Positions 9,707-56,503 of a stretch of 64,000 nucleotides of DNA are shown in pieces. Both the position numbers and the translations under genes were made by a program. Within the stretch, counting starts at the first letter, position 1, and every line of letters starts with the position of its first letter. Under the pieces are notes generated by a model that ran no database searches, was not told where the DNA came from, and saw only the letters and a list, made by a program, of their open reading frames with translations. This DNA comes from Nemertoderma westbladi (Eukaryota > Animalia > Xenacoelomorpha): NCBI GenBank assembly GCA_032718475.1, contig JAUCBJ010008942.1:29682-93681 (forward strand). The letters are read 5' to 3'.

Positions 9707-9783
9707 CCGCTCCCAGAAAATGGGATTCAAGTCTATAAATATACAAAATCACAGTTTCTAATATACGTAAATACTCTAAACAG

Positions 9784-12984: not shown

Positions 12985-15900
12985 TCACGTTGGGGAGTCC
13001 CTAGATGTTTGAGGAATTAGGGAGGTGGTCGTGGGAAGAGTGTCTGGCCTTCCATAGTTTCCGGAGAGTTCTCTGTCTCTTTCCAGTAAACATAAACGAC
13101 CAACTGGGCGGTTGAGTTGTTGCATCTCAAAGATTATGCCTGGCTTCTTGAAGTTACGCCGCATGACGACGAGTTCTACCGAGCGTACTAAACCATCATC
13201 CGAGATGTGAGTCTCGATGATACGACCTGTCTGCCACCGTTTACGTGGAAGGTCTGAATCTACAATAAGCACCATATCTCCGGCGCTGACGTTTTCTTGC
13301 TGCGCAAACCACTTAGTTCGAAGTTGTAGCGTGGGCAGATAATGTTTCTCGAAATGGTCAGCGAAACGACGGGATAGCAACTGCATAAGTTGCCAAGTTC
13401 GACGGCAGTATTCGTCTCCGTCGGCAATCTCCGATCGTGGGAGCATGGCTACAGGTTTCTTCAGTAGGAAGTGCGCGGGTGTTAGCGCTTCCAGGGAATC
13501 GGGACTCGATGAGACTGGCATAAGCGGTCTCTCGTTGAGATAGGCAGCTATTTCCTCCATTAACGTCCGCAAAAGTTCGTCGGTGAGATACGCGCGGCAT
13601 GGCACTATAAAGTGAAATGCGGTCTTGACACTCCTAATTAATCTCTCCCAACTTCCTCCCCACCAAGGGGCGTCGGAGGCGTTGAAGGTCCAGCTAGACG
13701 CTGTTATCCTTAGCTGATCGTCCACCTGTCTTTGGTTCCAGTCCTTCACGTAAGCCTGGATTTCGTTGTTGGCACCAATGAAGTTCGTTCCCTTATCCGA
13801 TCTCATGGTATTACTAGTCCCAAAGCGAGCGATCTGTCGGCGTAAACTTAATACGAAGCTGTTGGTAGATAGATCGTTCACCATATCGAGATGGATGGCT
13901 CTACAAGTCATGCATACGAAGATGACACACCATCTCTTGATTATAGTCCTAGCACGATATACTTCAATAGGGCCAAATAAATCTACACCAGTATTAGTAA
14001 AGGGTGGTTCATAGAAGCTTACTCGTTCCCTAGGTAATTCTGCCTCTCGCTGTGTTAAAGGCCTACTGAATGCTTTCCTACAGGGTATGCAGTTCCTAAG
14101 AACTTGGTTCAGAGCTCTACGGGGTTTATCAAAATAATAGCGAGTTCGAATTTCGCTAAGAACTCGTTCTCTACCAGCATGATAAAGTTTACTGTGAACA
14201 TCTACAATCATCTTGATTTGTACTTCAAGATTTCTAATGAGTATGGGGAATTTAGTGTCAAAGGATAATGGCGTATTGGTGAGCCTTCCTCCAACACGTA
14301 TTAACCCATCTATCATTGTGCTAGAGAAGCGATCCCTTAAGCGCATCTGCGGATTCCTTAACAACAGGAAATACTTATCGGAATCCTCATAGCATTGCAG
14401 GAGTCTCAGTATCTGCTTATTGGTTTCTTCATGCTCCTGGTAACTAATTTTCTCCTTTAGAAATCGGTCGGATGTCTTATATTTGGGTAAATTTTTAATA
14501 ACATGAACTTGCGCAGATGTCAATGGAGCGGTATCACTAATGGTCTTTGTCCTGGAGTAGTGATGATGAAAACATCGCCTTAAATATGTGACGGCTTTAC
14601 AGAGCCGATTCCAGGAACTGTAGTGATGCATTGCTCTCTGCAGCATGGGTGAGAATCCTTGCGAGACATCTGGTATTCCAGATTTCCAATCTCTATCTCT
14701 AATTTCCACAACAGACTTATTTGTGGCGAGGGATTGTGGATCCGAAGCATCGTTTCCGGAAGTATGTAATACAGATAGATCGATAGTCGGTTTAAATAAC
14801 TTCGATTTACTCGCCCGGGTTTTAGGTTTGACTTTCTCCGCTCCCTTGGCTTGTCTAATCTCCGCCGTAGTAAGGTGAGGAGGCCATTCATCCTCTTCCT
14901 TACTCAGGAAGTCGGGTCCACCCAACCAGTCTGGAGTATCTATCAGTTCCTGTGGAGTTGCTCCCCTGGAGGCGATATCGGCTGGATTAATCGTACCAGG
15001 GCAATGTCTCCATTGATCTATCTTTGTGCGACTAAGAATAATAGCTACCCTGTTAGTAACAAAAACGCTGAACTGACAGACTTCATTGGTTATATACTCC
15101 AACACGAGTAAAGCGTCGGTCCAATAAACAGTTTTCTCCAGTGGATAGTCGATTTGTTCTGTTACGTTCCGGCCGATGGCTGTAGCGTATAAAGCCGCCT
15201 TTAACTCCACTCGAGGAACCTTTAACTTGTTGTTAATCAATGCCTTAGAGGTAACCAAGGCGACTTTGATTCCATCCGGAGTTTCGACTCGCAGATATGC
15301 TACTATACCTATTCCCATGTCGCTGGCGTCTCCAAACACATGGAGTTGATAGGAATACGTAGGGAGAACATGACCAAAATATGCACGGGAAATTACAAAG
15401 CTCTCGATGGCAGGTAGAGAATCTTCCCATTTCATCCATTTCTTTAACAGTTCTCCCTTAAGCGGATCGTCCCATGAGTGGTTTTCAAGCCACATTTGTT
15501 GTACTAAACTCCGAGCAATCAATATAACTGGGCTAATAAATCCCAATGGGTCGAAATAAGTGCTCAGGATACTTAAACAAATCCGTTTGGTCCGAACTGG
15601 ATTATCTCGCTGTTTTAGCTGAAAAAACAGGATATCTCTTTCGGTGTCCCACTTCAAGCCAAGCGTCTTGGTTTCTGGAAGATCGTCCTTTATTAAGTCT
15701 AGATCTTTCGTTCCTCAGTCTTCTACCGGTATCGCTTCCAGAAACTCACGGGAGTTGCTGGTGAATTTCGTCAGTCGAAATCCACCTCTTTTCAAACACT
15801 CTACCATTCCTTTCGCGACATCAATGGCTTCTTCTACTGATGGAAGGGATCTTAAATTATCGTCCATGTATATATTACGCTTGATGTTGTCTATCACCTC

Positions 15901-17948
15901 TTTTGAGAAGGCGTCTCGGTTGTCATTCGCAGTGGTCCGCACTTCCACTTTGGAAGGGCTTGATATGATCCCAAAAGCCTGGATGGTCATCCAGTACTCT
16001 ACCGGTTTCTGGTTGAGATCCCCTTCAGGCCACCACAGAAATCTCAGGCTGTCTCTATCTCTATCCAGCGCCTTGACTTGTAAGAACATTCCTTCTATAT
16101 CGGAGGCGAACGCGATGGAATATTGTCTTAATCTTAAAAGTATTCCCAACAAAGATTGGAGTAAGTTGGGTCCTGGTAACAACTCGGAATTGAGGGATTG
16201 GCCCATATATAGAGCGGAGCCATCAAATACGACTCGTACTTCATGGGGTTTACCGGGTTTGGGAACGTAATGATGTGTTAAGTAATACGTTCTCTCAGTC
16301 ACTGGTGTTCCTTCCGGTACTCGCTCCGCGTATCCCTTTGTAATAAATTTCTTCAACTGAGTTTGGTACATTTCTTTAGCTGAAGCATTAGCCGTAAGGC
16401 GTCGATGTAATTGAGCGATTCTTTTCTCTGCCAAGGATTTACAAATCTAGGTTCTCGTTTTCGAAATGGTAGGCCGATTTCATATCTACCTTGGTCCTTT
16501 AAAAAACGTGTAGTTGTTTCCTGGATTTGCTTGGCTCTTTCTTCTTCTATCGATAGGGCCTTATCGTATGAATTGGGCTCTACCAATTCTTGAGTAAAGA
16601 ATCGTACGGCGAGTTCGTCCCGAGTTCTAGCGTTGTAGCGCTCTATCTCATCATTTAGTTCGTCATTGTAATCAATGGGTCCCGATGGGCGAATCAGTTG
16701 ACATAGGTTCACCTGGTTTTTCCAAGTTTTGTTTTCTGTAAGTAGGTCGATTGTGTTCTCTTCATCGAAGAGTTGGTAGATGTTGTCATTATCTGAGGAG
16801 TATGGTGTTCCCTCAGTTAGTTCGTCCACCTCACTGCTCTCCACTTCCCAATCGTTTACTTGGTATATTCGTTCTTGTGGCATTCTCTCTTCGAGAGTTC
16901 TGCGGGAAGGGCCAGTAAAGTACCAACCTATTCTAGTTCTTACCGCATAGGTTTGCAGTGGCTGCGGTTGAGCAGGCCGTTTCTCCAATGTCTCGAGCGC
17001 CTCATGCGCGTTTTGGCCGATGAGTATTTGCACTCCAGGATAATCTGTCTGGAATCGAGGTATCTTAAGCTGTTGGATGCTCTCATCCTCGTCCCAATTA
17101 TAAAGGTCTGCTTGGGTAGTAGCGAAGTTCTTTATAGCCACCATTTTTACCGACCTTATACCTTGTGCTCCTAATTTATCCTGGGGGGTGGACAACACAC
17201 CTACATAGTAATCTGCCGTTAGGGTAGATTTCCAAACCTGCATAATTCCTGACATATTCAATTTAGTCCGGAATTTGGGTTGTCCAGCAAAGATATCTTC
17301 GGCTAGTTCTTGATCGATGAATGTTCCTGTGCTGCCGGAGTCAAGGAGGGCGTTCACTATGTAACTTTTGTTAGGACCATGAACACATACCTGCACTACA
17401 GGAAATTCTCTGATTCCTACGTTGGAAGTTGGAGCTTTCCAAGATGGTTGTCTGGCAAAAGTAGTTGGTGGGCGCTCATTGTCGGTGTCCTTTTCATAAG
17501 TAAGTGCTCGATACACCGCGGTATTGATTAGGTAACAGGATTCGTTGGCGTCGGAGAATTCGTCAGTATAGAATCCTTCCATCTCAGACTCTTGATCAGT
17601 GTCATTTACATCACTGAATTGTACATGTAGTTCGGGCTCACTTACCTGACTCAGGTTGTCTCGTTCGAACTCACTGTGTAACAAGATGTGATGTTTCACA
17701 CCACACTTTGCACACTTTACGTCGGAGTAACAGGTTCGCCATTGGTGTCCTGATCTGAGGCAATTATAGCATAACCGCTTATCCCACATGACTTTATGTC
17801 TGTCTACCAGGGATTTCTTTAGGAATTCAGCACATGCACTCAAACGGTGGGGCCCGTCGCACAGCGCACAGTTTGGTTTGATGTTACTCACTTTACCTTG
17901 GGTAACGTTATGCACTCTCGTTCTTTCTTCGGGCTTTCTTCCGTGCAT
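12985..17948 (-). pseudogene. pol: B1 Gag zinc knuckles, protease, RT, RNase H, integrase (frameshifted)
   Basis: CALCDGPH/CYNCLRSGH/CAKCGVKHH knuckles; LLDSGS protease; FASDIEGMF and YMDD RT; LHVFGDAS, RVELKA, YWTD Pao-type RNase H; H-H-CIPC zinc finger and GVDLFGP/SDKGTNF/GGSWERL DDE integrase. Confidence 0.95.
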
Positions 17949-18019
17949 TCTGTTAGGAGACTGAGGAGGAGTCTTGGCAACCTGTTCTCTCCTATCGTTG
18001 GTTCGAGCCTTGTATTTAC

Positions 18020-21000
18020 TTACGCTTTTTGAGGTTTTGTTAACGTAGTAAAATCGGTCAGTGTCTTTCCCGCTGTCCTCTTCTTGAGAAGCTTGCTTTC
18101 GCCTTCGTCAGTGTAACACACTGGTGTTACTCTTCTCCTAGAAACGGGTTTCTCACTTACCTTATTTTCCGATGTTTTCTCTCTGGACTGCTTGATGAGT
18201 TGTAGTTTTACTTCACCATCTAAGAAGGACATGAGATCAGCCATGGTAGGGCTTCGTCGTTGCTGCTCATTCATATACAACACTTTCTTGTCCCAGCGTG
18301 TACATACTCCACCCTTTGGTAAAGTAGAGACTACGGCTCCAATAACCATGGAACTCTGATATTCATGAGACTTACCTAACCAGTCCAATAGTCTACAGAT
18401 CTCCTGAATCTCATCGGAAAACTCTATAATCCCGCTACTAAGGAAGTTTCGGGGGGCTACTAATTTTGCATACAAATACTTAGCTATGTTATCCTTGTTA
18501 CCATACCTGGTGTTTAATGTATCCCAAACTTGTCTTAATCCATCTGGATGTCCAATAAACTTTAACGCCATTAACTTGGGAGGTCCTTCCAAGCACTTGA
18601 TGAGGAATCTAAGTTTCTCTCCGTTAGATAGTACAGAGTTCTGTATGCATCTTTGTAATATTCATTGAAAGGTAACCATTTCATCTCATCTCCATTGAAT
18701 TTGACGATCTCTCCCACTTTGACCGCTTGGCGGGCTTCTGTTCTAGCCATCTGACGCGTAAAGCTTTCTTGGGCCATCGTGTTATTTAATATCGAATTAT
18801 CGGTATATGAATTTCTCGGATTATTATCAGGTCTATAGGGAATATCATTAACAACAGGTTTATAATCACCCTTAATAGGGTTTGCTATAGGAGTTTCTAC
18901 TTCACTAGCAGTATAGATGCGTGTAGGCTCCACACCTTGCGCATGTGATACTTCAGACCTAACAGGTTGACACAATGTTACTGGGGGTATTGGTATACCC
19001 TTTTGTATATTGACTAATTTGTCGCGTTCTAGCGCGATGCTTTGCTGCACTTCTTGCAATTCTAACCTACTTTCCCTTACTGTTCCCTTAAGTTGGTGGA
19101 CAGTCTCCTGCATCTGTCCGAGCAGGAGATTCATCCCCCGCCGTCCCTCCTCTACCCACTCAACCGCCGAAGCGGGAGTCGCCAACATTGTAGCGGGCCG
19201 ACGCAGGACGACGGGAGACAAATCTTTGATTTCTCTCTCAGTGTCCAGGACAGGGATATTCGCATGGACTGTTCTACCGGGTACAGGCAGTGTGGTACTG
19301 TGTAGAGGGAATTTAGAGTTAAGCTCTGGAAGTACAGGGGTCTCTAGCACAGGAGTGGCTTTGGGAACGACAGGCCTAATTATTTCAGGCTCATCAACTA
19401 TCATAGGGAGTCTTAATAATTTGGTCTGTGGGTTCTGTACTACCTAAGTCTGTGCTAGCTAGTTGTCTTCTAACCGCTGGGGGCAAATCAGGCAATTTGT
19501 GACGGTGAGATGTTTTTCTACGCCTGCTTAGACGAGATCTATTTCCTCCGCCTTCAGGATCAGTGGTCTCGCCTTCCTCCGATGATGTGTATCCTTGGCG
19601 TTTGGGAGTAGATCGACTCATCATCTGCATTTGACTAGCAGTTAACTGTTTATTTATGCAGTCTTGCGTCTCTTGCAGATTTTCCAACTCCAGTTGGGTA
19701 GTCTCCTCAGACGCTCTTCGTTCTGCTTCTGCCACTGCCTTTGCCGCCTTTCTTTCCGCTTCTGCTTCTGCCATTGCCGCTGCTGCCTTTCTTTCCGCTG
19801 CCGCTTTTGCCGCTTCCGCTTCTGCCATTGCTGCTGCTACTGCTGCTGCCTTTCGGTCCTCTATCCGTTTTTTCTTTACTTGTTCTTCCTGGACTCTAGC
19901 GAGGCGGAGTTTTTCATCAAATTTAGCTTGGTTTGCAGCTAACCTTTCTGCATCGATTGAGTCCAACACAAGCTTGGCTCCTTCACTATTGGGGCGAAGT
20001 CCAGCCAGTCGTCTCCTCAACTCTTCATCACCTAGGAAACGTTGATAGTCTGACAGATAGATGTCTATGGCGTCTCTCGTTCGCGGTCTCTTTGCGGTCA
20101 CTTCGCTTTCCACTTGAGAAAAGGTGGCATCGGTTGATTCTTCATAGGTTGGTCTCTCAGCCAGCTGGGATTTCCACTGGGCCGTTTCTTGTACTTTGAG
20201 ACCTACCCGCTGGAACCAAGTCTTGACAGCAACTTGCAGCGACGTGTCCTGTCTTCTTTTGGAAGTTTCCTCAAAGGCTGATAGGATTAGTCTAATGCGT
20301 AGGGTTCTTTCGCGTACTTGATATAGCAGCTCTTTCTGCTCTTGAGGTCCTTGGGGTTGTTGAAACAGTTGTTCTTCTAATCGCTCTAAGGAGCCGAAGA
20401 ATCCCTGCACATATCCTGCTGCCGACCTCTTCCAAACAGCTGGATCCATCGTATCTTTAGTCACTCCCATCCTGTGTATGTCTTCCCAAGTAGCTTCGGA
20501 CAAATCTAACGGGAGTCCGGGTCCGGGAAAGTTCCATTGTGACTCGACAATAGACATCAATTCTTCCCTGGCGTATCCCGCATAACTATCTTGGGTCGCT
20601 CGCTTACTTCTCGCCCAATCGCCTTGGTGTTCCACCACCGCAATCAATATAGTAGTTAGTACTGCGGCAGGAAGGGTGAGAAGGGGATCCGAATAGGCTG
20701 TAGCCGCCATCTTCACTCCGCGTTCGGGGGTCAGCTCTACAGTATCCGAACTACTGGAGCTATCGGGTCGCTGGGAACGAGTTTCTTGACTAGGATGTTG
20801 CTGCTGTTGGACAGCTGCCTCTTGGTTCCGTTTGACCTGGGCCCGAGTGCCGATGATAGACCTACGGTGTTGGATTAGCCTAGGGTCTGATACTACTACT
20901 GGAGGGATGACCTTTCTTTCAGTAGGAGGTGAGCTGAACCCCTTTCTTAATCGCTCCACACTCCTGTCTGTGTCACAGATGGTTGTATCGATTAGACTGT

Positions 21001-21028
21001 CTGACAGGTTTTGCTTTGTGTCAGACAT
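18020..21028 (-). pseudogene. gag: B1 gag with long N-terminal extension (frameshifted)
   Basis: ORFs 19394..21028, 18571..19404 and 18020..18592; KFNGDEMKW and WDTLNTRYG resemble BEL/Pao Gag; collinear with the B2 ORFs from 24654. Confidence 0.85.
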
Positions 21029-22149
21029 ACTTAGCTATACAGTTGAATGCTTGCTGCTATAGTTACAGTTAAAGCAAGTCTAGTAATTCAGTATGACCGT
21101 TGGCCTAGTACCGGTAATTTATTACAGTATATTAGAATACCGGTATACACTTATAATATATAGAAGTATTGTAAACTAGGTTTGTCACAGAGTACCGGTA
21201 TATAATTTTTGCACAAATATATATAAATATATAATAGGCCTATCGTGAATACCGGTATACAGCTGACACTTATAGTATATAAGTATAATTCTGGACTAGA
21301 ATAAATTACAGAATACCGGTATAATTTTAGCCTAAATTTATAGAAATAAAGATAATAGGCCTATCGTAAATACCGGTATATCAATTATTTAAATAATTGA
21401 ATTTCTGAATTTTAAAGGTTACTTAGTTACTTTAACTTACTTTATTACCGTTATTTAAGCAGTAGTCCAACTGATATTGAGACCTAGTTGTTGTATGGCA
21501 GGCCTACTATTTATAAATCGTTTGAGTTGATTTATAATATATATATACCCGTTTAAAATGGGTTTTGTCAATATTTGAAATAAATGTTATTATTTCCGGG
21601 GGGAGTCACTACACAGAAGCTGTGCGCTCTCAGTGAAGTGCTACTTAATAGACACTAAAACAGATAATTCTACTTTACCTAAGTTACTTAATACTTCAAA
21701 TTACGTACGATACGGGTGAGATTAATTCTCTAATTAAAACACAACAAAATATTACGTACGAAATTTTAGGGTAATTTTACAGGGAAACTACAAACCAGTC
21801 TAACAAAGGGTTAGAACTTCTGGTTATTACAACGGACAGGATACTACGGTATTTGAGAATAATAAAGCAGTAGTCAATATACTGCGTTGTCCAGATAGGA
21901 AAAATACCACCGTCTGACGACCTATAGCCGTATCGCTATAGGTACTACGTTATGTATCACGGAGTGTCCCTACCTGGAAGTTAATTACCGCAGACTACCA
22001 GATCCAACGTGCCTATTAACCACTTTACAACACAATACACTGCCTACACACTAATTACTTTCGGAAAGCACTGTACACCAAACCCTAAATTAGGTACAAG
22101 TACTTATTAAAACAGATAACTAGCAGTTAAATATACTTGAACAGTTAAA

Positions 22150-22630
22150 AGATTCCAAAATGGTTAGTTAGTATGCGTTCTAACACGGTAGTACGACTTA
22201 TTCTTTAGGAGGGGATTGACCTTACAGCTCTGGCTGCCCCAACTTACTAACTGGAACTTTATCAGACAAACTCTACACACGCAGCAATCTCTTCAGACCT
22301 AATAATAGCTAGACAACAATCCAGCCTACAAAAATATCTGAGTAATAACTATTACGGTACCTGAACAGACCACACAAACAAACACAGACTAAAACGCTGG
22401 CAGACTACTATCAAGCCTAAATTAACTACAGTATGTGCAGATTCCAAAATGGTTAGTTAGTATGCGTTCTAACACGGTAGTACGACTTATTCTTTAAGAG
22501 GGGATTGACCTTACAGCTCTGGCTGCCCCAACTTACTAACTGGCACTTTATCGGACAAACTCCACACACGCCGCAATCTCTCCAGACCCAACAACAGTCA
22601 GACAACAGTCCAGCCTACAATTATCTGAAC
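22150..22630. repeat. ~190-bp direct duplication in the B1 leader (offset ~289 bp)
   Basis: GATTCCAAAATGGTTAGTTAGTATGCG...CCAGCCTACAA at ~22151 and ~22440. Confidence 0.85.
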
Positions 22631-22801
22631 AATCTGAGCAGACTTACACGTCTTCAGCTCAATATTAACTTACATGTAAATAAAACCGACAGAAATAAGT
22701 AAAATCTCAATAAAAACCAGGGCTGCAGTCCCTGATTAAATACTAAGACCTACCGGTATACAATAATCAAAATCGAATAATACTAATGTACTTATACTGG
22801 A

Positions 22802-23004
22802 AGTACCGGTTAGGACAGTTGGGCCTACAGACCTACAGCAGTACCGGTTCAGGCAGTTAGGCCTACGGACCTACAGCAGTACCGGTTCTGGCAGTTGGGC
22901 CTACGGATCTACAGCAGTACCGGTTCTGGCAGTTGGGCCTACGGACCTACAGCAGTACCGGTTCTGGCAGTTGGGCCTACGGACCTACAGCAGTACCGGT
23001 TCAG
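22802..23004. repeat. 38-bp tandem repeat, ~5 copies, in the B1 leader just inside the PBS position
   Basis: Unit GGCAGTTGGGCCTACGGACCTACAGCAGTACCGGTTCT. Confidence 0.92.
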
Positions 23005-23056
23005 GTTTACCGGTCGACCGGTACTTTCAACTTTATTGCTTACTGCAATAAAGACA

Positions 23057-23067
23057 ATAACTGTTAT
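23057..23067 (-). promoter_or_regulatory. Non-tRNA primer-binding site of B1 (ATAACAGTTAT), complementary to its own LTR
   Basis: Directly abuts the 5' LTR, has no TGG, and is the exact 11-nt reverse complement of the LTR sense sequence at 23812-23822 (9270-9280 in the 3' LTR). Confidence 0.7.
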
Positions 23068-24248
23068 TGTACGCGCTTTTGAAGACCTTTAGCAGTTTAA
23101 CCTGCCAAAATTTATATGTCTTTTGGTTTATAAATAGACTTTAGTAAATGACAAATATTTAATACCAATAAACACAACATTAGCCGAAGCCAGCCTAGTG
23201 CGCGTCCATTCACCCGCTGGATATACCCGGGAGACTGGATTCGGAGGGCTTAGATTGTTATTGCAGTGTAAGCTTACTGTATTATTCGATTGATCGTTAA
23301 TAAATAATTTCTGACCAATATTATTCACTTTCGGGAAATATTAACAGTTCCTTTAGGACGTGGCGCTCTATCTAGGTAAACAGAGATATGACTTATGCTA
23401 AACACAACGGTAAGTCGGTAAGGCTTATGATTCACGTATGAGGCGCATTCTTTAGGAAATGCTTAGTTATCAGCCACAATCATGCACACTACCGGTACCA
23501 CACAATACTGCACACTAATCTGCCGACCGTCAATGAATTTTATCATATATAAAGAGAACAGCAATTGACTCATGTAGTGCCTATCAAATAGCATTAAACT
23601 CACTACAAACCACGATAATATAAGTCGCAATCGCTATATGTAACCTGTCTCTCTAACCTGTAGTGTATCAAGAAAATTGGGAAATTTGGGTTATTTATCG
23701 ATGTTCTCCAAGTAATAATATTCAACCAAACAACAGTAAAAACCATTAAGACGGTAGGTTAAGATATGATATGACAATGTACTGATAATGTAACAATGAT
23801 ATGATGTGCCGATAACAGTTATACGCTCTATAATCTAAGCCTACTAATGTTTCTTCTAAAGTCTGAAACGAATTGACTCCAGAGCCGGTGTTCTTGGCCT
23901 AGATAGAAACAACAAAACAGTATCAAGAAAAACAGTAAGACTGAACACTCCTAGCACGATCTGTAGAATATCTCCACATCGACAATAAAAATCGCCCTGA
24001 TTGGCTGTTAAGCTAAACAAAGAACCATGTGTCCAACGGCCGTTTCCATGCCAGCAACCAGCTGTTAGATGTCGTAATCTGAATCATCAAGGCTACACTG
24101 TGCTAGAGGATTTGACGCATTGCGGGTTTTGTGCCTTGCCATGTCCGCCAAAGCACACATATAGAAGAATGACTTTTATGTCCGTTAAAACACCTACAAC
24201 GGTACTTTGCGGGCAAGGGGACTGATTATATCCGCAAAAGCTTTTACA
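23068..24248 (-). repeat. 5' LTR of B1
   Basis: Direct repeat of 8526-9706, followed by TSD GTAAA. Confidence 0.95.
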
Positions 24249-33362: not shown

Positions 33363-35282
33363 CAGTGTTTGGAGTGGGTGTGTGACTACATTAATTTATT
33401 TTTTATTTTTATATTTATGTATATATTATTATGTAATCTTATTATTATAATCGTTTTCTTTAATTTTATTTAGTAGAATAATAGTTTAATGATTATTCAG
33501 TAGATTAGTACAATATATTCGTGTTTTATTACTTAATTACTTAGTATAATATATTTCGTTTAACGGCGAGAAATAATTCATTTTCTCTTTCCTTACTGTC
33601 CGTATCATACTAGAAATACTTGACTACAGTAAGATGAAATGTCAGTACTTATTAAAGTACAATATACCGCCCCTACTATAATTAAGTATTATTGGTAAGT
33701 AGAGTATTAGGAATGCAAAGTTCAGATCCTCATGTCTCGGCTAAACCAAGCTCTGGGTAGACCTTGGAAACGACTTGCCTCTTCTCACTGACATTGCTTC
33801 TTGCAATATTGCTCTCATACCGTATCTTAAATAATACGTATAGTAGAATGATGTCCATTTAACAGTAGCGATTGAAGCGCAAAATATTTGTTAAACAAAT
33901 CTGTTAATCAATCTTCAAATAAATCTGTTAAACCCTTTGGCAATCTGAAATTCTAGTCGATTAAGATATCGCGGCACCCACCGATATACTTGAAAGACGA
34001 AATTCTAGAATCAGTGGTTAACGTCCCCAGACATGTTCTGGAATAAATCGGTGCCCATCCTAAATATTAAATATTTAATAAATATTTACAACGTTTGATA
34101 TAACAAATGTTAAAATAGAGAAAAGTATAAATTAAATCTGTTAAAATTTTAGATCCTCTAAAATTCTAGTCGATTGAGATATTGTAGTACTTACCGATAC
34201 TCTTAAAAGACAAATTTCTGGAATTAAGGATCCTAGTTCCCAGACATGTTCTAGAATAAAATTGTGTCTATTTTAATATCAAATAATAAAATTCATGGGA
34301 ATAAATTTTAAATTCATATCCTCTCATGAATTTGATAAATTGTCATTTTATACAATTTATAAACATTCCCAAAATTCCATTAATTAATAGATCATGGGAG
34401 CGGAGATTCACCCTATTAAGTATATCAGTGTGAGAGAATCTCCAGTGTACAGTCAATAGCCAATAAAAGCCGAAGCCGTGTATAAGGGGAATATTGACAA
34501 TTAAAGAATCACTATTAAATAGCATCCCATATCTGTATGCATGAGAATTACCCTAATTCTACCACTAGTTTTTCATAATGTCACCATAGTAACAACCACG
34601 TTAGAATTAGAAGCGAGTTATAAGAACAATAGAAAGCTTGCCCCATTGAATAGCATGCGGAATAAATAGCACCTTGCTAGTATCTAGGGATACATAATAA
34701 TAACGTGGCATTCTGGAAGGCATTTGACTAATGGACAAATGGCCCTAATTTGTACAAATTGTGGCAGGAATGTGGAATTTGTGTTTTTATAGGTGAATGT
34801 TACTACTAAAGTGTGTTTACAGTAGCGAGTCGCAGTTGTGAAAGTTACCCTGCCTCTGTAGCAAGTACCTCCAGTATATCCAAGCCCTTGGGACGGACAG
34901 TGGAGTGACTCGCGCTGGTTATTGTTGTCATTGTGTAGCTACTACGTTGGCGAGAGGCACAGCGACGACAGTACATCAGCGCTGCGGATCTCACGCTGTC
35001 CGGGGGCATAGAGGGGGAGGTAGCGACGACCGCTAGCCTTATTATTATTAACTATAATATCGATAAACTCATATAGCAGCTGTGACTGAGTTGATAGAAG
35101 ATGATCTTGGTATCAGGGAGCGATATACCCTACCACTGCAAGCGTTTGTTGATAGTTTGATAAGCAGCGACGCTAGTCAACAAACGACGGAAGACGATGG
35201 CCATTATATCGAACCGCCAATGGCAAAGGAATAGCTCAAGCGTGAATTGGACTATCGGAAATTCACCGCTCGCTATACGCAT

Positions 35283-35868
35283 TGTTAGCGGATTCAATTC
35301 CGCTAACCACCCCATAAAGTTGGGAAACGGCACCTTTAAGCAATATTGGGGAATACGAGATTGATTACCAATCAACCTCGTATCACCCCCAATAAATGTG
35401 GACAACAAACCCCAAAGGGCCGCACACAAAGGGAGGTCAGAGGTTAAACCTCCGGGAGGGGAAAGTAACAGCAGTGGTGGGGGGAAACAATCCCACAGAG
35501 TCGAGGGCGAGAATTAGGTTATTGGCCAATGGGAGCCAAGAAACGCATCCACTGGGTACAATGGCCATAGGTAATGTAGATATATAATATTACCGGTTAG
35601 TGCCCAACATTCAGTTTACGCAGTCATCAGGTGCAGTACGGTGACATTTCGCACCGTCACCGTCACTACAGTACAAACAACATATTGTATTTACCGGTAC
35701 TCAGTTATCTCATTATATCACCATTCAATTATCTATCAACTGTGCTGTGATATCTATGTGTCAACCTATAACAACTCGAACGATAACAACTACCATATTT
35801 TCTTCTTCTCATCAACACGGTGATGCGTAGCGAAACAAAACCGGTCGGGATCCACTGATCCCGTCACA
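35283..35868 (+). repeat. 5' LTR of A2, with TATA-like TATATAA (35581) and Inr-like TCAGT (35611)
   Basis: TGTTAGCG...CCCGTCACA, repeated at 42202-42781; the CATTCAGTTTAC block is conserved in the A3 LTR about 20-30 nt after a TATAA. Confidence 0.9.
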
Positions 35869-35877
35869 GTGCGAAAT
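35869..35877 (+). promoter_or_regulatory. Non-tRNA primer-binding site of A2 (GTGCGAAAT), complementary to its own LTR
   Basis: Abuts the 5' LTR; reverse complement of ATTTCGCAC at 35646-35654. Confidence 0.72.
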
Positions 35878-35899
35878 ACCCAAACTGGAAACTGTGACT

Positions 35900-38800
35900 G
35901 CCAGACTCAAGTAGGACAGAGATAAGATGAGTCAAGAAAGAGAGACGACAAGTAGGACAGAGATAAGATGAGTCAAGAAAGAGAGACGACACCGCCACGG
36001 ACCCCGGACAATACGAACGAAACGATCCGCTAGGCCGCGACACGACGGTATCGACCCGCAACACTGGACTCGCCGGAGAGGAGCGAACCGGTAGCTCAGG
36101 CGGAGGGCGGCCGTCTACCACAATGAGGGACAAGCGAGTGGAGAGAAGGGATAGACGAGTCGACGCACGACGGCACACGAGGTACCGATGTCGCCGGCCA
36201 GCCACAGGTCGAGGGCGGCAGACGGCCCACAGGAACGGCGACGGTGGGGCCTCCGGTACGACGCCGAACACGGAGAGAAAGAGGAGAGGTCGGCGATGAG
36301 GACGTCGGAGTTAGCGACCGGCTCCGGCGGGCCTACAACGCGACGAGGAAGCAGATAAAGGAAGCTAAGGAGGGAGCAAAACTAGATCAGGTGAAGCTAG
36401 AGAAGCGGCTAGGTGAGTCGAATAGACATCTTAACTATCTAGTCCGCTATGGACAAGGAGAGTTGGCGGGTGGAAGAGCGAGAGGGGTTGCCACCGAACT
36501 GTTCGAACTGTGGCAGTCTAGGGGTATTGAGCCTGGTGTAGTGTACATAGGGCCGTACTTAGTGGATGCCAGGGGAAATAAGTTAGTGAGTTGGGCGGGA
36601 CCGCGGGAGGGTGAATCCGAGGTTAACCCCGAGGATTCGGTCTCGCCGGTCGGCGAAAACCTCAGAAAGCAGGGGAAAGTTAGTAGGACGGGGAGGCGAC
36701 GGGAGTCCGTCGCGACCGACAAGTCTGCTAAATCCTCCGCAAAAGTAAGAAGGGTGCTAGAAATAGATCTGGCGTGCCAGTTGGATATCGTGTTGCTAGA
36801 CCAAAAGGAGTTAGAGAGGCAGTTGGAGGAAGGAGCTGCGTTGCTAGAGAGAGAGAGAGAGTTGGCGAGGGAGTGTAAAGAGAGAGCTGAGAGGGTAGCC
36901 AGGAACTGTAGGGAGCAAGAAGAGAGGGAGAAAAAGAAGCGCGAGGAGCGAGAAGGGAGGGAGAAAGAGGAGCGCAAGAGGGAGAAAGGGGAGCGAGAAG
37001 GGAGGGAGAAAGAGGAGCGTGAGAGGGAGAAAGAGGAGCGTGAGAGGGAGAAAGAGGAGCACAAAGAACGAGAAGCAAGAGAGGCAGCGAGGGTGGAGAG
37101 AGAAACAATTGAATGTAGAGAGCGGGTGGCGAGAGAAACAGAGTTAGCGAACCAGAGTTTGCGAGAGGATAGGGAGAGAGAGAGAACGGGGAAGCGTGTG
37201 CGGGATGATATGCACGCCTGGCTGAGGGGGCTTATGCAATATCAGGCCAAACAGAAGCGCCGACTAGAACTGGCACAGTTGGGGCTGTCAGAAAGTGAGG
37301 CTGGCTCGGGTAGTGTTTATGAGGAGCCAGAAGTTATGGAAACGTTTGTTAATACTCCACTTGCAGGGACCGGACGACAGACCCAAGACTGGTGTAACCG
37401 TACGGGCGGGGGGTAATAACAATACTTTAGAGAACGTTAATATTAATAGTACCGTAGTAGATAACCCTAATCAAACTTTCATTGCAGGAAATAATATTTT
37501 GCCCGATAGTAGTAATTTAAATCCGAACGATTTTAATATAAATGTACAAAGTAGTCCAAATAATTTAAATAATAATATATAATTACGCAAAATAATTCAA
37601 ATAATATAATTACGCAAAATAATTCAAATAATAATCTTAATTCGAACGAACAGAATAATCCCGTTTCAAATTCAAATAATTCTAATAATTTAAATAATTT
37701 AGAAAATAGAGTTGGTAATGGTGCTATTAATATAAACGTGGCGGATGCAGGTGGCCCGGCAAATGAGAACCTGGTAGGCCACGTAGTCAGTAGGCAGGGA
37801 GTAACGGGGGTGAGAAACCACAATGAGAGCCTGGTAGGCCACGTAATCAGTAGGCAGGAGGTGGCGGGGGTGAGAAACCCCAGTGAAAGCCTGGTAGGCC
37901 ACGTAGTTAGTGCGCAGGGAGTGGCGGGGTTGAGTCAACCCGACGTGGGCCTGTCAGGCCACACAGTGATAGAGGGAGAGGCGGGGGTGAGTAGACCCAG
38001 TGTAGTTAGTGCGTCGACTTGAGAGGGGTGTAGAGGCGAAGTGACAGATATTGAAGTGATATGTGGCGAGCGGGGGGGGGGGGGGGGGGCTACAGGAGCC
38101 CCACAACGAGAGATTAGCGGCGAGTGGGGGGGGGGGGCTACAGGGGCCCCACAATGAGAGATTAGCGGCGAGAGGGGGGGAGGGCAGAGAGTGTCCCGCA
38201 GGCGTCGGCGGATAATGCGCGGGGCGAATTAGGTGAACCGCAGCACCCGGCGATGGAGAATAGTAGGGGGATTACGAGTATCCCCAGCAGCGTGCGACCG
38301 AGTAGAGAGAGAGAGGTTAACGTCGCGAGAGGGCGAGCGACGAGACGCCGAGCCCAGTCAGAAGAGGGAAGAAGAACAGTGGAGTTTAACCGGGAGGTCG
38401 ACGAGAGATCTCACAAGCGGGGACACTGCACTGCAGAGAGAAGAAGGGAAGAGAGTAGAAGAAGTGTCGTCTCGAACGACAGAAGAGCAAAGACGGATAG
38501 CGAGACAGGGAGTACGGGCACCCGGCCAAGATCATCCGGCAGACCCTGAGAGGTATAACATTGGGTGGCCTGCAGGATAACCCCGTTAGCATAAAGACAT
38601 TGGCAAACAAAGTCGAGAAGGCACTAATCGTGTTGAAGACGTTAGACGCGCCATACAAACTCAACGCATCTAATAATATCACCACGATAGTGCCGGCACT
38701 GCCAATCTGGCTGCGCAGTAAGTGGAGAAAAATCGTTTTCTCCACCCGAGAGAAGAAGGGTGCGGAACCGGGCCTAGAGGAAATGTCGAACTTCCTCAAC

Positions 38801-40593
38801 TACGAAGCTGAGTTGATCACGGACCCAGTCTATAGCAAGGATAGTCTGGGAAAGGCGCCAAGGGCCGAATACAACAGGCCGAAACCAGAGCACAATGCGG
38901 CAAACGCATTACCAAAACTAAGACAATCCCTACCATACACGGCGACACAGGGGACAGCCAGTCCACGGATAGTTGGGAGTGGGGCCAGACCGTGGCATGA
39001 ACAGGGACAAAATAACAACACGAACAAACATAATCCCAAGACGCCCAGTAGGCCAAACCCAAATAACCAAAACACAAAATCGGTAGACGTGAACTTATGC
39101 GCAATATGCGTAGGGCTGTATAAGGAACGTTACAACCCGGGATACGAATGTCAATTGCATAAAGACGGAACCCATAAGACCATGGACTATAAGCATTGAC
39201 AGGCGTTACCCGAACAAGATCGGAAAGCCTATGCGGATAAGATTGCAGTCTGTCACCGATGCGTGGTAGGAGGACACAAGGTTGAAGAGTGTAAGGAGAC
39301 ACCAATTAAGTTCGGTCAAGGCAAAGGGCAGACAATGGCGACAAGCACCATAGGGGCAAAGAAGAGAGGAACAGTACTACTCGGGGTAGTACCAGTGAGG
39401 GTAATCGGGGAAGGCGATCGATCAGTAACCACACTGATGCTGGTCGACAGTGGAGCAGCCTTCACATTGGTCGAGAATTGGGTGGCCGAAGAGATAGGAT
39501 TGAAAACGAGACCAAGTAGAAGGGCGGTAACAACCATCTCCAGCAAAGATGAGGTCCTGGAGATGAGGACTGGACGGTGCGGGATAGCAGCGATAGCACC
39601 GGGATGCGATTATGGGGCGACGATCGACCCCATCCAGGTGATAGAGTCGATAAATATTAACGCCAGGCGACCAACCAACATCGAGGTCGAACAATATAGG
39701 TTCCTGGACAGTATCGACTTCTCGATACCAGAAGTGGACGTTAGGAAGGTATCCATTATAGTAGGAATGGACTGCCCGACCGCCAACGAGAGAATGCAGA
39801 CGGTCTTCGGGAAGACAAATAGCGTGACCCGGAGGCAATCTTAACACCATTCGGGTGGACGCTAAGTGGCCCAATCAAAACCAAGATACCATTTAGGATG
39901 TTGGAGATATCAGGGTGCATGTTCGCGGGAACTATGCGGGAGATGGAAGACGAAGGAGTGGAGGAGCAGCTCAGGAGACTGTTTAGACAGGATTTTGAGG
40001 GATTGAAAGAGAACGGGGTCGGAACCTCGGTAGAAGATAAGCAGGCTTTACAAAGCGTAAAGGAGTTGATGACATGCGACGAGGGGCGGTATACCATAGG
40101 CATGGTATGGAAACAACCAAAACTACCGTTACCCGACAACAAAGGAATGGTACTCACGAGGCTTCGTAAGTTAAAGCAAACGCTAAAACGGAGCCCCGAA
40201 AAGAATGAGTACATTCATAAGACGATTAGGAAGTATGTCGAGAAAGGATGGGCCGTGGAGTTACCGGTCGACGAACCGAACACGGACAGGACCTACTACC
40301 TACCACTTCACGTGGCTCTAGATCCGAAGAAAGGTAAACTACGGATGGTAGTTGACACATCAGCTAAGACCAACAGCAAATGCCTAAACGATTATCTGTT
40401 AGAGGGTCCCAATATCTACAACTCAGGGATCGAGGTCCTACTCAGATTCAGAAATTGGAAGCACGCCTTCACATGCGACATTGAAGGCATGTTCAACCAA
40501 GTCCGTGTTACGGAGGAGGATAGTGATGGCCAGCGCTTCCTATGGTACAACGGCGATGAGGAACCGTCGACAATAACAACACACAAAATATAA
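35900..40593 (+). pseudogene. gag-pol: A2 gag-protease-RT fragments
   Basis: Glu/Arg coiled coil (36244..37416), Asn-rich tract, 20-aa LVGHVVSRQ repeats, LPIWLRSKW Gag segment, CQLHKDGTH knuckle, LVDSGA protease, and YYLPLH / FTCDIEGMFNQV BEL-type RT truncated before YxDD. Confidence 0.85.
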
Positions 40594-40839
40594 AAAAAAA
40601 AAAAAAATTAATAAAATAAATAAAGAGAAAGAAAAAATAATAGTACGTAGTAGGTACGTAGTAAGTAAGTAGGCAGATAGAAGTTAGTAAGAGATAGTCA
40701 GTAAGAGGGTTTGTAGTACCGGTTAGTAAGGGTTAGTAGAAGTTAGTTAGGGTGTAAGTTGTGTAAGTGTAGTAGTTAATAAGAAGTTAGTAGTAGCAAG
40801 AAGTTAGTAAGTAGTAAGAAGTAAGAGGAAGTTAGTTAG

Positions 40840-41115
40840 AGATCAGGGAGTGTGGTATATAGACATACCACGGGAGTAAGAGGGTACATAGTACCGTTAG
40901 AGTAGAAGCACAGGGAGTGTGGTATAGAGACATGCCCAGGGAGTAAGAGGGTACGTAGTACCGTTAGAGTAGAAGCACAGGGAGTGTGGTATAGAGACAT
41001 ACCACGGGAGTAAGAGGGTACGTGGTACCGAGAGAGTTAGAGATTAAAAAAATCAGGGAGTGTGGTATAGAGACATACCACGGGAGTAACAGGGTACATA
41101 GTACCGTTAGAGGTA
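40840..41115 (+). repeat. ~66-76 bp tandem repeat, 4 copies, each with two short stem-loops
   Basis: Unit CAGGGAGTGTGGTATAGAGACATACCACGGGAGTAAGAGGGTACRTAGTACCG. Confidence 0.85.
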
Positions 41116-42201
41116 GAGAGTTAGTTTGAGTTAGTAGAATTAGTGAAGTTAATAGTTAGTAAGAAGTTAGCAAGAGAGTTACGTAGTAAGAAGTAAGTAG
41201 AGAGGTAAGTACAAAATGACAGCACAGAACAGGGGCAAATAGAGATAAAATAAAACAAAATTAAAATAAAATTAAGAATAATCAGGATCACCTCCGAACT
41301 ACAGAAGAGCATTCAAGGTGGCCTTCGAAGGTCTGGTAGACCACCCGGGGCTGAAGGGCGAGTCGGTGTAATACAACAGCCGGCATCTAGTAGACAGGGA
41401 GGTGGATACACATAACAAAGGTGGGAAAGTTGGAAGCGGATAGACTTGATGGGAAGCGACTGGAAGAAGTCACCAGGCGAGAAAGGCGGAGAGAGAGTAG
41501 TGAGTAATAGGAATGAAACGCGTTATGTAAACGAGCACATAATATAATATATATAATGAAAATAATTATAATCTTATAATAATTATATAATAATTTGTAT
41601 ATATATTATACAGTATGTACCCTAGTCAAGTACAGCCTTTCCAATTAGCTACTTACTGGGACTGGGGATTAATTGACTAGGGCAACAGGACGGGACTTGG
41701 ATGGCTCCCACTTACATGAGCGCTCATTTGTGGGGCCCGATAAGCATGCAAGGGATGAAAGCGAGAAGAGGAATCGGGGGGAAGAACAGAGAGCAGGTTT
41801 TTTTGACAGGATGAGGGAACGTGAGAGGAGTGTAATTCAAGTGTGGGGGGGGGGGAGGAGTAAGAGGCAGAGTGAGGGACAAGGGGGTCCGAGAGTTAGA
41901 GTGGAGGGAAAACTAGAATCAGTTAGAACGGAGTTAGAGTGGAGAGAGTGTTGGGAAACAAAAATTGTGTGAGAGAAACCCACAATTGGCCCGACACGGG
42001 ACATCAGATGTCTTGGTGAAAGATAGATAAAGTTGCACCAAGAGAGGGTAGCGATATCATGCCCATAGGGAGCAGCCGGGAAAGCCGGCTCCGAGAAAAA
42101 TAACTCCACCCCACACCCGATAGTAGATCGGATTCCAGCGGAATTGAAGCACACTTGAGGTGGATGCTATCTTCTCACCGGGAAGATAGCATGGGGGGGA
42201 G

Positions 42202-42781
42202 TGTTAGCGGATTCAATTCCGCTAACCACCCCATAAAGTTGGGAAACGGCACCTTTAAGCAATATTGGGGAATACGAGATTGATTACCAATCAACCTCGT
42301 ATCACCCCCAATAAACGGGGACGACAAACCCCAAAGGGCCGCACACAAAGGGAGGTCAGAGGTTAAACCTCCGGGAGGGGAAAGTAACAGCAGTGGGGGG
42401 GGGGGAAACAATCCCACAGAGTCGAGGGCGAGAATTAGGTTATTGGCCAATGGGAGCCAAGAAACGCATCCGCTGGGTACAATGGCCATAGGTAATGTAG
42501 ATATATAATATTACCGGTTAGTGCCCAACATTCAGTTTACTCAGTCATCAGGTGCAGTACGGTGACATTCCGCACCGTCACCGTCACTACAGTACAAACA
42601 ACATATTGTATTTACCGGTACTCAGTTATCTCATTATATCACCATTCAATTATCTATCAACTGTGCTGTGATATTATGTTATAACAACTCGAACGATAAC
42701 AACCACCATCTTTACTTCTTCTCATCAACACGGTGACGCGTAGCGAAACAAAACCAGTCTGGATCCACTGATCCCGTCACA
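42202..42781 (+). repeat. 3' LTR of A2
   Basis: Direct repeat of 35283-35868 with scattered differences. Confidence 0.92.
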
Positions 42782-45182
42782 CGCATCGTAATGGTACGTA
42801 TATGGACTTCTTAACTACTGGTCATTTGTGGTCATCCTATCGATTTACATGATACGGACGATGTAGACACCGAAAGGGAAATGATTCTATTTAAATATCA
42901 TGCTCAGCGGAGTCGGAATGATAAACTGAGAATTGAACATGAAAATTCTATTCGAAACCAACTCTAAAGAGAAGATGTTGAAGAACCGGATAAACGTAAT
43001 GACTTCAACGAATATTTAGAATTCTTGAGAGAAACTTATCTCAATGTGGCTAGTCAACAAAATCTAGAAACTCGATATCCTCAAGGTATACATCATAACC
43101 CTACGGTAGAACTCATACGACTCTATTGTACTATGATGTATCTTACCGCCGATCGACCGCTACCTGTTGTACTGGATAGCTTCGAATAGATGGAGGAATA
43201 TTGAAAAACTGGAGAAAGATCACCAGCGTTTCCCTTACAAGACGTGCGTCTTTGCTATTACTGCGATGAATGCCCTAGACCCAATCAACAAATGGAAAGA
43301 CATAAAAATCCGCGGAGACGTTGCGCTAAACACAGTGTTACTAGCTATACTTATGGGAGTTTTGAGCGAAACTTATTCGATGTATCACCTACGCTCGCTC
43401 GACTCAAACGATCCTTGAATAAACCTATGATCAGAGTTCCGGAATACTCGGTCAGACCTCCTCATTCCCTGGTGCGACCTCAGACTCTTGATCCTAATAG
43501 TGTGATGGATCCTCCTGAATTGTACTCATTGTTCAAAGATCTAGTATTAATAATAACATATTTGAATGTCCTCATCAGAGAAATCGTTAATCGAGTTTCA
43601 TTGCTAACTTTACAAGGTTAGCAATTTATACCCCTGGAGCCGGACCTCCTAAAAAGATCTAGTATTACCCGAACAATTATACGGTGGCACTCCGGTTGTG
43701 GGCTCTCTAGATATTTGCCCATCCTACCTAGCCGGATTGGGACGCGGACATCTAATATCTCGGTTCAACCCATATAATCGTCCCGGTTTAACTCCGATAC
43801 AAACTGTAACTGAGGTGGAGGAAAGCTTTGTACGAAATGCGCTAGACGCTATTCGGCAAAAGATCGGAAAAGGAACCTACGATTATTTAGACAAACGTAA
43901 ATTGCAACAACAAGTCCAAGCGGTAAAAGAATTAGCTTTACCCCAGTTCGATCGTGAAATCCAGAATTTTGAGGAAGATATCGAACTTGGACGAACATAC
44001 TCTCTACAAGAGTTCTTGGACGAACGCTTCCAATGACAAGCGGAGGAGAATCAGCTCGAAGAGAAACATATCAAAATGGATGATGGAGAATAAGCAGCTT
44101 TAGCCCAACCGGAAGCTCAAATCCTTATGACTGATCTCTATTCCAAAACCATCATTCATCCTTCGATGGTTCCCCATTTCGGAGATAAACTCTTCGCCAC
44201 AGCACAACCCCAACTGGTTGATATAAACTCAAGATCTAGAGATCTTATCGCTGATGCTCCTATGCTACAACGTCCACCAATCGAGGCTGCTCGTGTCGAC
44301 GGTATACTCGTTGAACCTCCGGACAATCGAGAGGATCTCGTCCGTCGTCTGGTACACGAGGTCAACCTATGCGCTAGACCTTTACCGAAATCTTTTATGG
44401 GATCAAAGATCATCCATATTATGTCAATTTAACTCACTATTATATGGTGAAACCGGAAGATCCTAGACACAGTTTAAAGTTTCTACCTTTGATAAATCCC
44501 CGCGATCTTGTTGAACTCAAACAACTACAGAAACATTTAGATCAATTGGTTAAAGTAAACTCATTCAGAAAACCTTATAATGTTTCAAGAATAGAAAAGG
44601 ACATAATACCTCCGTATAATCTTGATGGATTCATTAAAACTCGATTAGTCCATTGGAGTTTATATGTATTGTTTGAGGAAGAAAGAATACGGTGACTTGT
44701 TCTTAAACTCGCATCCTGGGTTACAAGAAATTCATAGACGACCATATGAATATAAAGCCAGAGAACGCGAATTAGAGAGAACAATCAAACCGCGGAAATT
44801 TCTCACTACACACGGTCAACCTACCGCTGTCGTACAAACGACCCATCAAGGACCGGTAAGAGCTGCCGTCCTGAAACGAGCTCTAAAGGTTGTTCGCCCT
44901 CATTCCACCGATGTTGATATCGATCAACCGGGTACCTCGACCGGCGGATACACCGACCGTAACCCAAAACCTTCTGATGCAATCGTATTGCACCCTTCCC
45001 CCAGGAGTTATAGCCCTCCTAGTAAAGTGGCTCGCCCCAAAGAGAAAAAGACTCTTACTAGTCTCAAAAAACTTCGTAAACGCCGTTCACAAAAGAAGGA
45101 CTGATAGTTTAGAGTATTTTTGTATTTTAGAAACTGTAATTTTTCATATTTTATAGACTTAAATCCCATTTTCTGGGAGCGA

Positions 45183-46329: not shown

Positions 46330-46469
46330 ATTACTAAAAAGAAGAGTATTAAATAGCAAAAAATATTACCATGACAACAGGTTAATTATTGTTCCCCATT
46401 TGGAAAAATCATCTAACATAAATGCAATAATTTTTATTGTTTAAATCCGTTTAAATCCATTTTTTGTCC

Positions 46470-46666: not shown

Positions 46667-46827
46667 ATATATAGAGCACTATTTTGTAGTATATTGCATG
46701 TACAGATGTAGGTATAAAGCAGGTATTTTAGGTATTTTAGTACCGGTACCGGCACCGGTACTGCTGTGTAGGCCTACTGTGTAGCCTACCATTTAAATAC
46801 GGTACTGGTAGGCCTACCGGCTGACCG

Positions 46828-52700: not shown

Positions 52701-52712
52701 AATTATTTTTAA

Positions 52713-56469: not shown

Positions 56470-56494
56470 TGTCAGGGCAGCTGGGCGGATCTGA

Positions 56495-56503
56495 TTCTGT
56501 CAC
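56495..56503 (-). promoter_or_regulatory. Non-tRNA primer-binding site of A3 (GTGACAGAA), complementary to its own LTR
   Basis: Abuts the 5' LTR (starts at 56504); the LTR sense strand has TTCTGTCAC at 56681-56689. Confidence 0.72.

Follow-up and report, generated by a model that had tools for sequence, protein, structure and literature searches.

The window analysed here, a stretch of 64,000 nucleotides from the genome of Nemertoderma westbladi (contig JAUCBJ010008942.1, positions 29,682 to 93,681), is animal DNA dense in retroelements, and two of these, termed B1 and B2, are sister elements of one family (family B), both of which carry a third gene, ORF3, 3' of pol. Family B belongs to the BEL/Pao long terminal repeat (LTR) retrotransposons (Belpaoviridae), since its open reading frames (ORFs) match the Pfam families Peptidase_A17 (1.6e-36), DUF5641 (2.6e-20) and Integrase_H2C2 (2e-07), all on the ORF at 12985-15714, and since it possesses LTRs and a target-site duplication (TSD); the gag family DUF1759 is also matched (Pfam, 1.1e-07), on the B1 ORF at 18020-18661. 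B1 is complete, with LTRs of 1181 nt at 8526-9706 and 23067-24247 that are 99.24% identical, have ends of the TG..CA type (TGT..ACA) and are accompanied by a 5-bp target duplication, GTAAA. B2, on the plus strand at ~24485-46335, is 75-83% identical to B1 and is decayed, with nested insertions, one of which, a 7.5-kb LTR element here called N, splits its ORF3; the only LTR found for B2 is a diverged 3' copy (45793-46335, ~72% identical to the B1 LTR). The subject of this analysis is ORF3 itself, which has ends that are shared by B1 and B2 and a middle that is not.

Pol and ORF3 are separated by an apparently non-coding spacer of ~1.6 kb. Substitutions between B1 and B2 are biased towards third codon positions as far as the pol stop codon near 12985, the bias is then lost for ~1.6 kb, over which there are also insertions and deletions (indels), and it is back near 11400, where the shared reading begins (MTELIEDDLG in B1, VTELIEDDLG in B2). 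The start of ORF3 is near 11385 in B1 and 35055 in B2, upstream of where an earlier note made from the sequence alone had placed it, and tblastn with N-terminal pieces of the B1 protein recovers the beginning of the B2 gene ahead of element N (76% over 50 amino acids and 84% over 25). The spacer (11400-12985 on the minus strand in B1, 33400-35040 on the plus strand in B2) is 75-94% conserved between the two elements save for three gap-rich stretches, shows no codon periodicity and could contain a splice acceptor or internal promoter for ORF3.

As the earlier note claimed, the two genes match up to a first Cys/His knuckle, CDECPRPNQQ..H, and again from YGDLF.NSHP into a basic tail: in blastn and MAFFT alignments the left flank (B2 42781-43313, B1 11163-10642) is 83.3% identical and the right flank (B2 44685-45211, B1 10203-9678) 79.6%. 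The pattern of the CDECPRPNQQ motif occurs exactly twice in the window, at 10664-10693 on the minus strand and 43262-43291 on the plus strand, and two matches were reached in none of 100 shuffles. Between B1 and B2 the ratio of nonsynonymous to synonymous divergence (dN/dS) is 0.106 in the left flank (synonymous divergence, dS, 0.73; 160 codons) and 0.090 in the right flank (dS 1.19; 139 codons), compared with 0.093 in pol (dS 0.70; 901/909 codons); both flank values refer to the frames in which the earlier note had read the gene, and other frames give 1.1-3.3. Since the divergence of B1 and B2, purifying selection has thus acted on the N-terminal (~245 codons) and C-terminal (~140 codons) parts of ORF3, with a dS depth equal to that of pol and as tight a constraint over the same time span. 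The difference in the middle is a local event in elements that are otherwise sisters. The N-terminal part of the B1 copy in the window carries one in-frame stop (11233-11235) and a frame switch near 10930.

The centre between the flanks measures 1371 bp (43314-44684) in B2 and 438 bp (10204-10641) in B1, in good agreement with the ~1.35 kb and ~450 bp first estimated. The two centres are not aligned by MAFFT, and searches with blastn (word size 7) and tblastx at E-values up to 0.1 reveal neither a mutual similarity nor a match of either centre elsewhere in the window; in the MAFFT alignment the identity of ~80% is lost entirely over a few bases at each junction, and only two types of centre have been seen. 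The B1 centre encodes, as its translation confirms, two further knuckles, CAYCRLNNLHIFAVC and CHHCQLKGH. When scored with codon-usage log-odds trained on B1 gag-pol it reaches +14.1, a value that none of 1000 shuffles attained, and the B2 centre sums to +80.6 bits on its sense strand, whereas none of the five other frames exceeds -108, again with 0 of 1000 shuffles as high. This bears out the description of the B2 centre as same-strand, coding-like sequence; the four ORFs on which that description was based (43244..43621, 43698..44036, 44127..44432 and 44444..44695) are all present, and the first of them continues the frame of the left flank, so that the centre is, as had been stated, in frame at its left junction.

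Both forms of ORF3 extend beyond the copies in the window. Short contigs from four public DNA runs of a single organism, belonging to three studies (X1-X4), were aligned to the B1 and B2 stretches, with a likeness of at least 80% on the B2 stretch and at least 85% on the B1 stretch. The four runs gave 11073, 8205, 4073 and 205 contigs on the B2 stretch, where the whole centre is covered, and 11119, 7926, 3223 and 261 on the B1 stretch. Among 32 pieces listed, the B2 left junction is bridged by record 10 of X2 (43276-43440) and record 17 of X3 (43160-43403), and the B2 right junction by record 23 of X3 (44641-44796) and record 32 of X4 (44633-45136); each of these pieces shows 18-46 differences and hence comes from another copy. 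The B1 right junction (10203/10204) is bridged by record 20 of X3 (10105-10458), record 25 of X4 (10139-10404) and record 4 of X1 (10162-10275). As the contigs cover both middles and bridge three of the four junctions, each centre form is a trait of a multicopy subfamily, and the situation that the earlier note had named as telling against a module, a segment that occurs only in this copy, does not apply. The alignments leave 895 and 388 loose contig ends, a few of which were listed. One 207-nt contig, found both as record 7 of X1 and as record 16 of X2, aligns at 44685-44854 with ~87% identity to the B2 right flank, departs from it exactly at 44685 and continues for 35 letters that have no match in the stretch; the departing part may be of B1 type or represent a third type of centre.

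The coding signal of B2 changes frame three times, running in frame 2 to ~43600, in frame 0 to ~44350, in frame 2 to ~44650 and in frame 0 to the stop codon at 45104, and there are two in-frame stops within the centre (44037 and 44112). The first switch lies at a secondary insert of 118 bp whose two sides carry an exact direct repeat of 15 nt (43535-43549 and 43653-43667), the only bracketed insert of the B2 centre: frame 2 stays open as far as 43621 and frame 0 from 43653 onwards, and each copy of the repeat reads KDLVL in the frame of its own side. The second and third switches are of opposite sign, and at the site of the second the copies differ by one letter. For these reasons the B2 ORF3 was probably a single frame of ~800 codons originally, and the observed frames fit one long ORF once the insert and the opposite pair of switches are allowed for. 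One contig of X2 passes from 43542 to 43669 with an interval of 7 other letters. Contig depth, which is no measure of copy number, dips at 43540-43633 and gives a weak hint that the majority of copies lack the insert. The inserted 103 bp (43550-43652) hold a 12-nt near-palindrome (43600-43625), and a small retroposed fragment and a duplication slip are both possibilities for their origin. The B2 copy in the window is presumably dead, as it is interrupted by the nested LTR element and by the 118-bp insert, contains five in-frame stops and changes frame at two further places.

Table 1. Features of the two ORF3 genes and of the elements related to them
Feature	Coordinates	Strand	Evidence
B1, complete BEL/Pao LTR retrotransposon, 15.7 kb	8526..24247	-	LTRs, TSD, Pfam
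B1 ORF3, conserved N-terminal part to first Cys/His knuckle (CDECPRPNQQ..H)	10642..11385	-	translation, alignment, dN/dS
B1-type centre, 146 codons: two further Cys/His knuckles and ~100 residues	10204..10641	-	translation, coding score
B1 ORF3, conserved C-terminal part, YGDLF.NSHP to Lys/Arg-rich tail, with stop codon	9784..10203	-	79.6% to B2 44685-45104
B2 ORF3, start of conserved N-terminal part, interrupted by element N	35055..35282	+	tblastn, translation
Nested LTR element N, inside B2 ORF3 but not part of ORF3	35283..42781	+	LTRs, TSD
B2 ORF3, remaining N-terminal part to first knuckle; frame 2, three in-frame stops	42782..43312	+	alignment, dN/dS
B2-type centre, ~418 codons of orphan coding-like sequence and 118-bp insert	43313..44684	+	coding score
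Secondary 118-bp insert (103 bp and one 15-nt repeat copy), first frame switch	43535..43667	+	direct repeat
B2 ORF3, conserved C-terminal part, basic tail, stop codon	44685..45104	+	alignment, dN/dS
ORF of 385 amino acids, stop, then 105 amino acids with basic tail; three Cys/His knuckles	3020..4495	-	translation, similarity to B1 centre

A single detectable relative of the B1-type centre exists, in the ORF at 3338-4495. The match (tblastn 3e-4, BLASTP 4e-6) has 27% identity over 63 aligned positions and spans two knuckles and the segment after them, there is no nucleotide match, and the Smith-Waterman score has a z of 8.9 and was reached by none of 1000 shuffles. By eye the knuckle spacing is CX2CX5HX4C and CX2CX4H in the B1 centre and two canonical CX2CX4HX4C in ORF 3338-4495; no piece of the B2 centre resembles this ORF. 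A duplication of B1's own gag knuckles was considered as the source of knuckles 2 and 3 and was rejected, as the gag knuckles reach a z of only 1.2 against the B1 centre. The whole reading, 3020-4495, is part of a truncated retroelement fragment in which an LTR-like end follows ~700 bp downstream of the reading. In blastn, 1907-2885 and 2032-2689 match LTR and 3'-end sequence of element N and of a further LTR element, C. Because this nearby end is related to the LTRs of N and C, ORF 3338-4495 belongs to another retroelement family, in which it has a post-pol-like position, the fragment being truncated upstream. As N and C themselves have no tblastn match to ORF 3020-4495, the accessory ORF seems to be variably present in that family too. 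Because the B1 centre has this distant relative in an element of a different family within the window, the knuckle form of B1 is probably the older one and the centre of B2 derived.

The earlier note had seen in this arrangement a replaceable cargo module within a conserved scaffold. A module within a conserved scaffold stands, with a flank dN/dS of 0.09-0.11, centres that cannot be aligned and a multicopy distribution of both, and two modules are documented; the word cargo is doubtful, as the B1 centre, having a distant relative in the ORF of another retroelement, looks like an original core. The comparison with effectors under host conflict, which the note had also drawn, is an analogy that found no support here.

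The protein that ORF3 would encode has an acidic N-terminal part (35 aspartate and glutamate against 20 lysine and arginine residues) and a basic tail (30 lysine and arginine against 14 aspartate and glutamate), and the B2 centre is also acidic. The highest 19-residue Kyte-Doolittle mean in all ORF3 segments of B1 and B2 is 0.88, with no segment hydrophobic enough for a signal peptide or membrane anchor and no match to a Pfam glycoprotein family, and on this hydropathy an env-like ORF3 was rejected. Our best guess from its composition and motifs is that the protein acts as a soluble accessory factor that binds nucleic acids, and that it is no env. No ORF3 piece matches a Pfam family over threshold, the nearest being DUF6076 (0.021), EAD2 (0.08) and Phage_integr_3 (0.11), all far below the cut-offs. 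Searches of protein databases for relatives of the B2 centre, near its length or longer, found none, nor did a metagenome scan; the PDB gave only noise (E 0.4-0.95), and a 127-amino-acid piece of the centre has no usable match in the Atlas. The B1 ORF of 344 amino acids is likewise without relatives in a near-length protein search, in the PDB or in viral contigs, and the shared C-terminus has none in a metagenome scan; the sole match of the B1 ORF when 1.84 billion representative proteins were searched exhaustively, the 2166-amino-acid repeat protein P0001, is made through 8 copies of one repeat and was judged to be chance.

We regard it as fairly probable that the B2 middle, unrelated to that of B1, results from a one-time replacement within a gene whose shared ends are conserved like pol and which is predicted to encode a soluble nucleic-acid-binding factor. 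The replacement would be a single event that preceded the spread of one subfamily and was due to template switching without homology or to insertion and deletion, with the B2 lineage losing knuckles 2 and 3 and gaining the orphan segment. The function common to both forms, such as binding of the element's RNA or particle or nuclear targeting, would reside in the acidic N-terminus and in the Lys/Arg-rich tail, and the middle would tune or change it.

Several observations weigh against this account. Its polarity hangs on one domain-sized match of 27% identity, and ORF 3338-4495 shows no significant likeness to knuckle 1 or to the family B flanks (scores reached in 530 and 361 of 1000 shuffles). 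Near the right edge of the centres there is a marginal peptide likeness, KFLRSVNPSDL to KFLPLINPRDL, with a score reached by 6 of 300 shuffles, which leaves some room for partial divergence as opposed to clean replacement; the right edge of the non-homologous part may accordingly be ~200 bp further left in B2. In the B1 copy the frame of the first knuckle stops 20 codons beyond the junction, and knuckles 2 and 3 are in the +1 frame, with an ATG before them. The other copies have no indel at 20% or more of depth listed at this left junction, and one is listed near 10928, at the other frame switch of B1. Because the first knuckle and the centre are thus out of frame with no indel listed at the junction, the B1-type gene may be broken throughout its subfamily, may consist of two overlapping ORFs or may need a frameshift. 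Furthermore, none of the pieces listed reaches at least 31 letters past the B1 left junction (10641/10642) in both directions, individual public contigs measure 100-700 nt, and an uninterrupted ORF3 of either type has not been seen. As to function, Pfam zf-CCHC is unmatched even at E up to 10, so that the prediction comes from Cys/His spacing and charge only, and the single-sequence AlphaFold models are poor, with a mean predicted local distance difference test score of 58.2 for the 127-amino-acid B2 piece, helical at low confidence, and of 36.1 for the 344 amino acids of B1.

The strongest of the other explanations, though we consider it unlikely, is that the swap ran the other way, with the B2-type centre ancestral and the B1 lineage capturing its knuckle module from the family of ORF 3338-4495 through recombination of co-packaged RNA. 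The centre is indeed the sole part of the B1 ORF3 that resembles ORF 3338-4495, the flanks having no likeness to it, as would be expected of a transferred module, and the frame offset exactly at the B1 left junction would suit an imprecise join. However, 27% identity over 63 positions with no nucleotide match means that any such transfer would be old, and differential conservation explains the pattern equally well, Cys/His domains usually being the last detectable part of a diverged protein; moreover knuckle 1 is in the flank shared by both B types, which fits an ancestral array of knuckles.

It is rather improbable that there was no swap at all and that the middle is a fast-evolving, indel-prone linker which diverged in situ and was expanded in B2 by internal insertions. 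The residual likeness at the right edge, to which YNL..FI can be added, is in keeping with this idea, as is the presence of at least one secondary insert, that of 118 bp, within the B2 centre. The abrupt loss of identity at both junctions is not, given that dS in the flanks equals that in pol, and neither are the threefold difference in length and the empty tblastx comparison of the centres; the B1 centre is still recognisable in a different family, which indicates that the region is not intrinsically unconstrained.

Replacement in the B2 lineage might also be one instance of something wider, an idea drawn by analogy that we hold to be just as improbable: ORF3 would be a lineage-specific accessory gene made of a fixed scaffold, its two ends, with an exchangeable middle, in which B2 captured a 418-codon orphan domain in place of two knuckles and was highly amplified, the middle would be a specificity module in a contest with the host, for example for evasion of a restriction factor, and more types of middle would be found in the genome.

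It is very unlikely that an unrelated mobile element, or a captured fragment, took the place of the knuckles in a dead copy and that the B2 centre is thus unconnected with the gene. B2 is old and riddled with insertions (the nested LTR element and, in the B2 leader, a long interspersed nuclear element, LINE, and B1), and its centre has no database relative, but that centre agrees with the gene in strand and, at the left junction, in reading frame, is written in the element's own codon usage, has neither RT, transposase nor integrase domain (Pfam; RT, reverse transcriptase), and shares its junctions with numerous other copies, so that it has been transmitted by retrotransposition within the element. 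The search of both its boundaries (43313/44685) found no direct or inverted repeat, TSD, terminal inverted repeat or LTR, as the earlier note had also reported, and no tandem repeats were found in the region; a nested transposon was accordingly rejected as the source of the B2 centre, there being no termini of its own, no TSD at the boundaries and no domain of a transposition gene.

The surroundings of the two genes are of some interest in their own right. Element N has LTRs at 35283-35868 and 42202-42781 (588 nt, 96.1% identical), a 5-bp TSD, CGCAT, and a BEL/Pao-like RT motif in its ORF at 39823-40593. The leader of B2 seemingly resumes at 4471-5166, in sense orientation and beyond both B1 and the LINE (77.8% to B1 22009-21308), and 4471-46335 is then nested like a Russian doll, with the B2 leader split by the LINE, B1 in the 3' end of the LINE and N in the ORF3 of B2. 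The LINE has an ORF at 5832-8540 with RVT_1 and an endonuclease, and the insertion of B1 into its 3' end is marked by the TSD GTAAA. The gag-pol of B1 is spread over six ORFs although its LTRs are 99.2% identical, and on these grounds B1 either stems from a master that was itself defective or has decayed quickly. Element C (~49800-57100) has LTRs at 49807-50106 and 56504-56803 that are identical (100%) over 300 nt, and it is flanked by a large, near-identical duplication (46753-50106 and 57768-60570, offset ~10.47 kb) within which there are 68-bp tandem arrays (46753-47800 and 57768-58271); a 32-bp tandem array is found at 52126-52603. Finally, an open frame of 520 codons at 61338-62900 on the plus strand has three Cadherin-domain matches (1e-44) and looks like a large exon of a host gene of cadherin or protocadherin type.

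Genes beyond gag and pol have been described in several groups of LTR retrotransposons. The ORF3s of bdelloid rotifers are treated in one account as parts of modular retroelements, with ORF3 types common to several groups (PMC5408684), and what they have in common with family B is a post-pol gene that varies between related lineages whose gag-pol is conserved. In the bdelloid examples given there whole recognisable types, such as a GDSL esterase, a DEDDy exonuclease and a fusion glycoprotein, differ between families (PMC5408684), whereas in family B, a BEL/Pao family, only the middle of one orphan ORF3 differs, between sister subfamilies, with the ends under selection. For BEL/Pao elements it has been stated that few carry env and that their usual size is 4.2-10 kb, a range that B1 with its 15.7 kb exceeds; where env is present it shares with the ORF3 of family B a position between pol and the 3' LTR (PMC3118150). 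ORF3 differs from such env genes in having no hydrophobic anchor segment (maximum 0.88) and in having Cys/His knuckles and a basic tail instead. The knuckles of the B1 centre and of ORF 3338-4495 are similar to the zf-CCHC knuckles of Gag in their CX2CX4-5HX4C spacing and in the basic regions nearby, and differ from them in that there is no Pfam match, in a z of 1.2 for the element's own gag, and in that the gene lies after pol and not in gag. Cer1 of C. elegans is an LTR retrotransposon of the Ty3/gypsy type. It possesses an accessory protein, CERV, that acts, according to the title of the report, on the genomic RNA (PMC10309623), a role of the sort put forward here for ORF3, and like ORF3 this is an accessory protein beyond gag and pol; a functional parallel would be conjecture. 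A non-exhaustive search of the literature found no description of an exchange within a gene between sister subfamilies in which both ends are kept, and relative to the known modularity of ORF3s this exchange inside one orphan gene is a modest variation.

The finding changes no textbook view: that the ORF3s of retroelements are modular has been documented before, and those in the window belong to dead copies. The accessory genes of LTR retrotransposons are nevertheless poorly understood, most of them being without an assigned function, and ORF3, which comes from an animal BEL/Pao family of extreme abundance, is one under as tight a constraint as pol (dN/dS ~0.1), whilst its central third has, on the account we favour, been exchanged as a whole between two subfamilies that were both successful. 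Two forms that have their ends in common and differ in one block would constitute a natural experiment on what such genes do and on which part of them does it.

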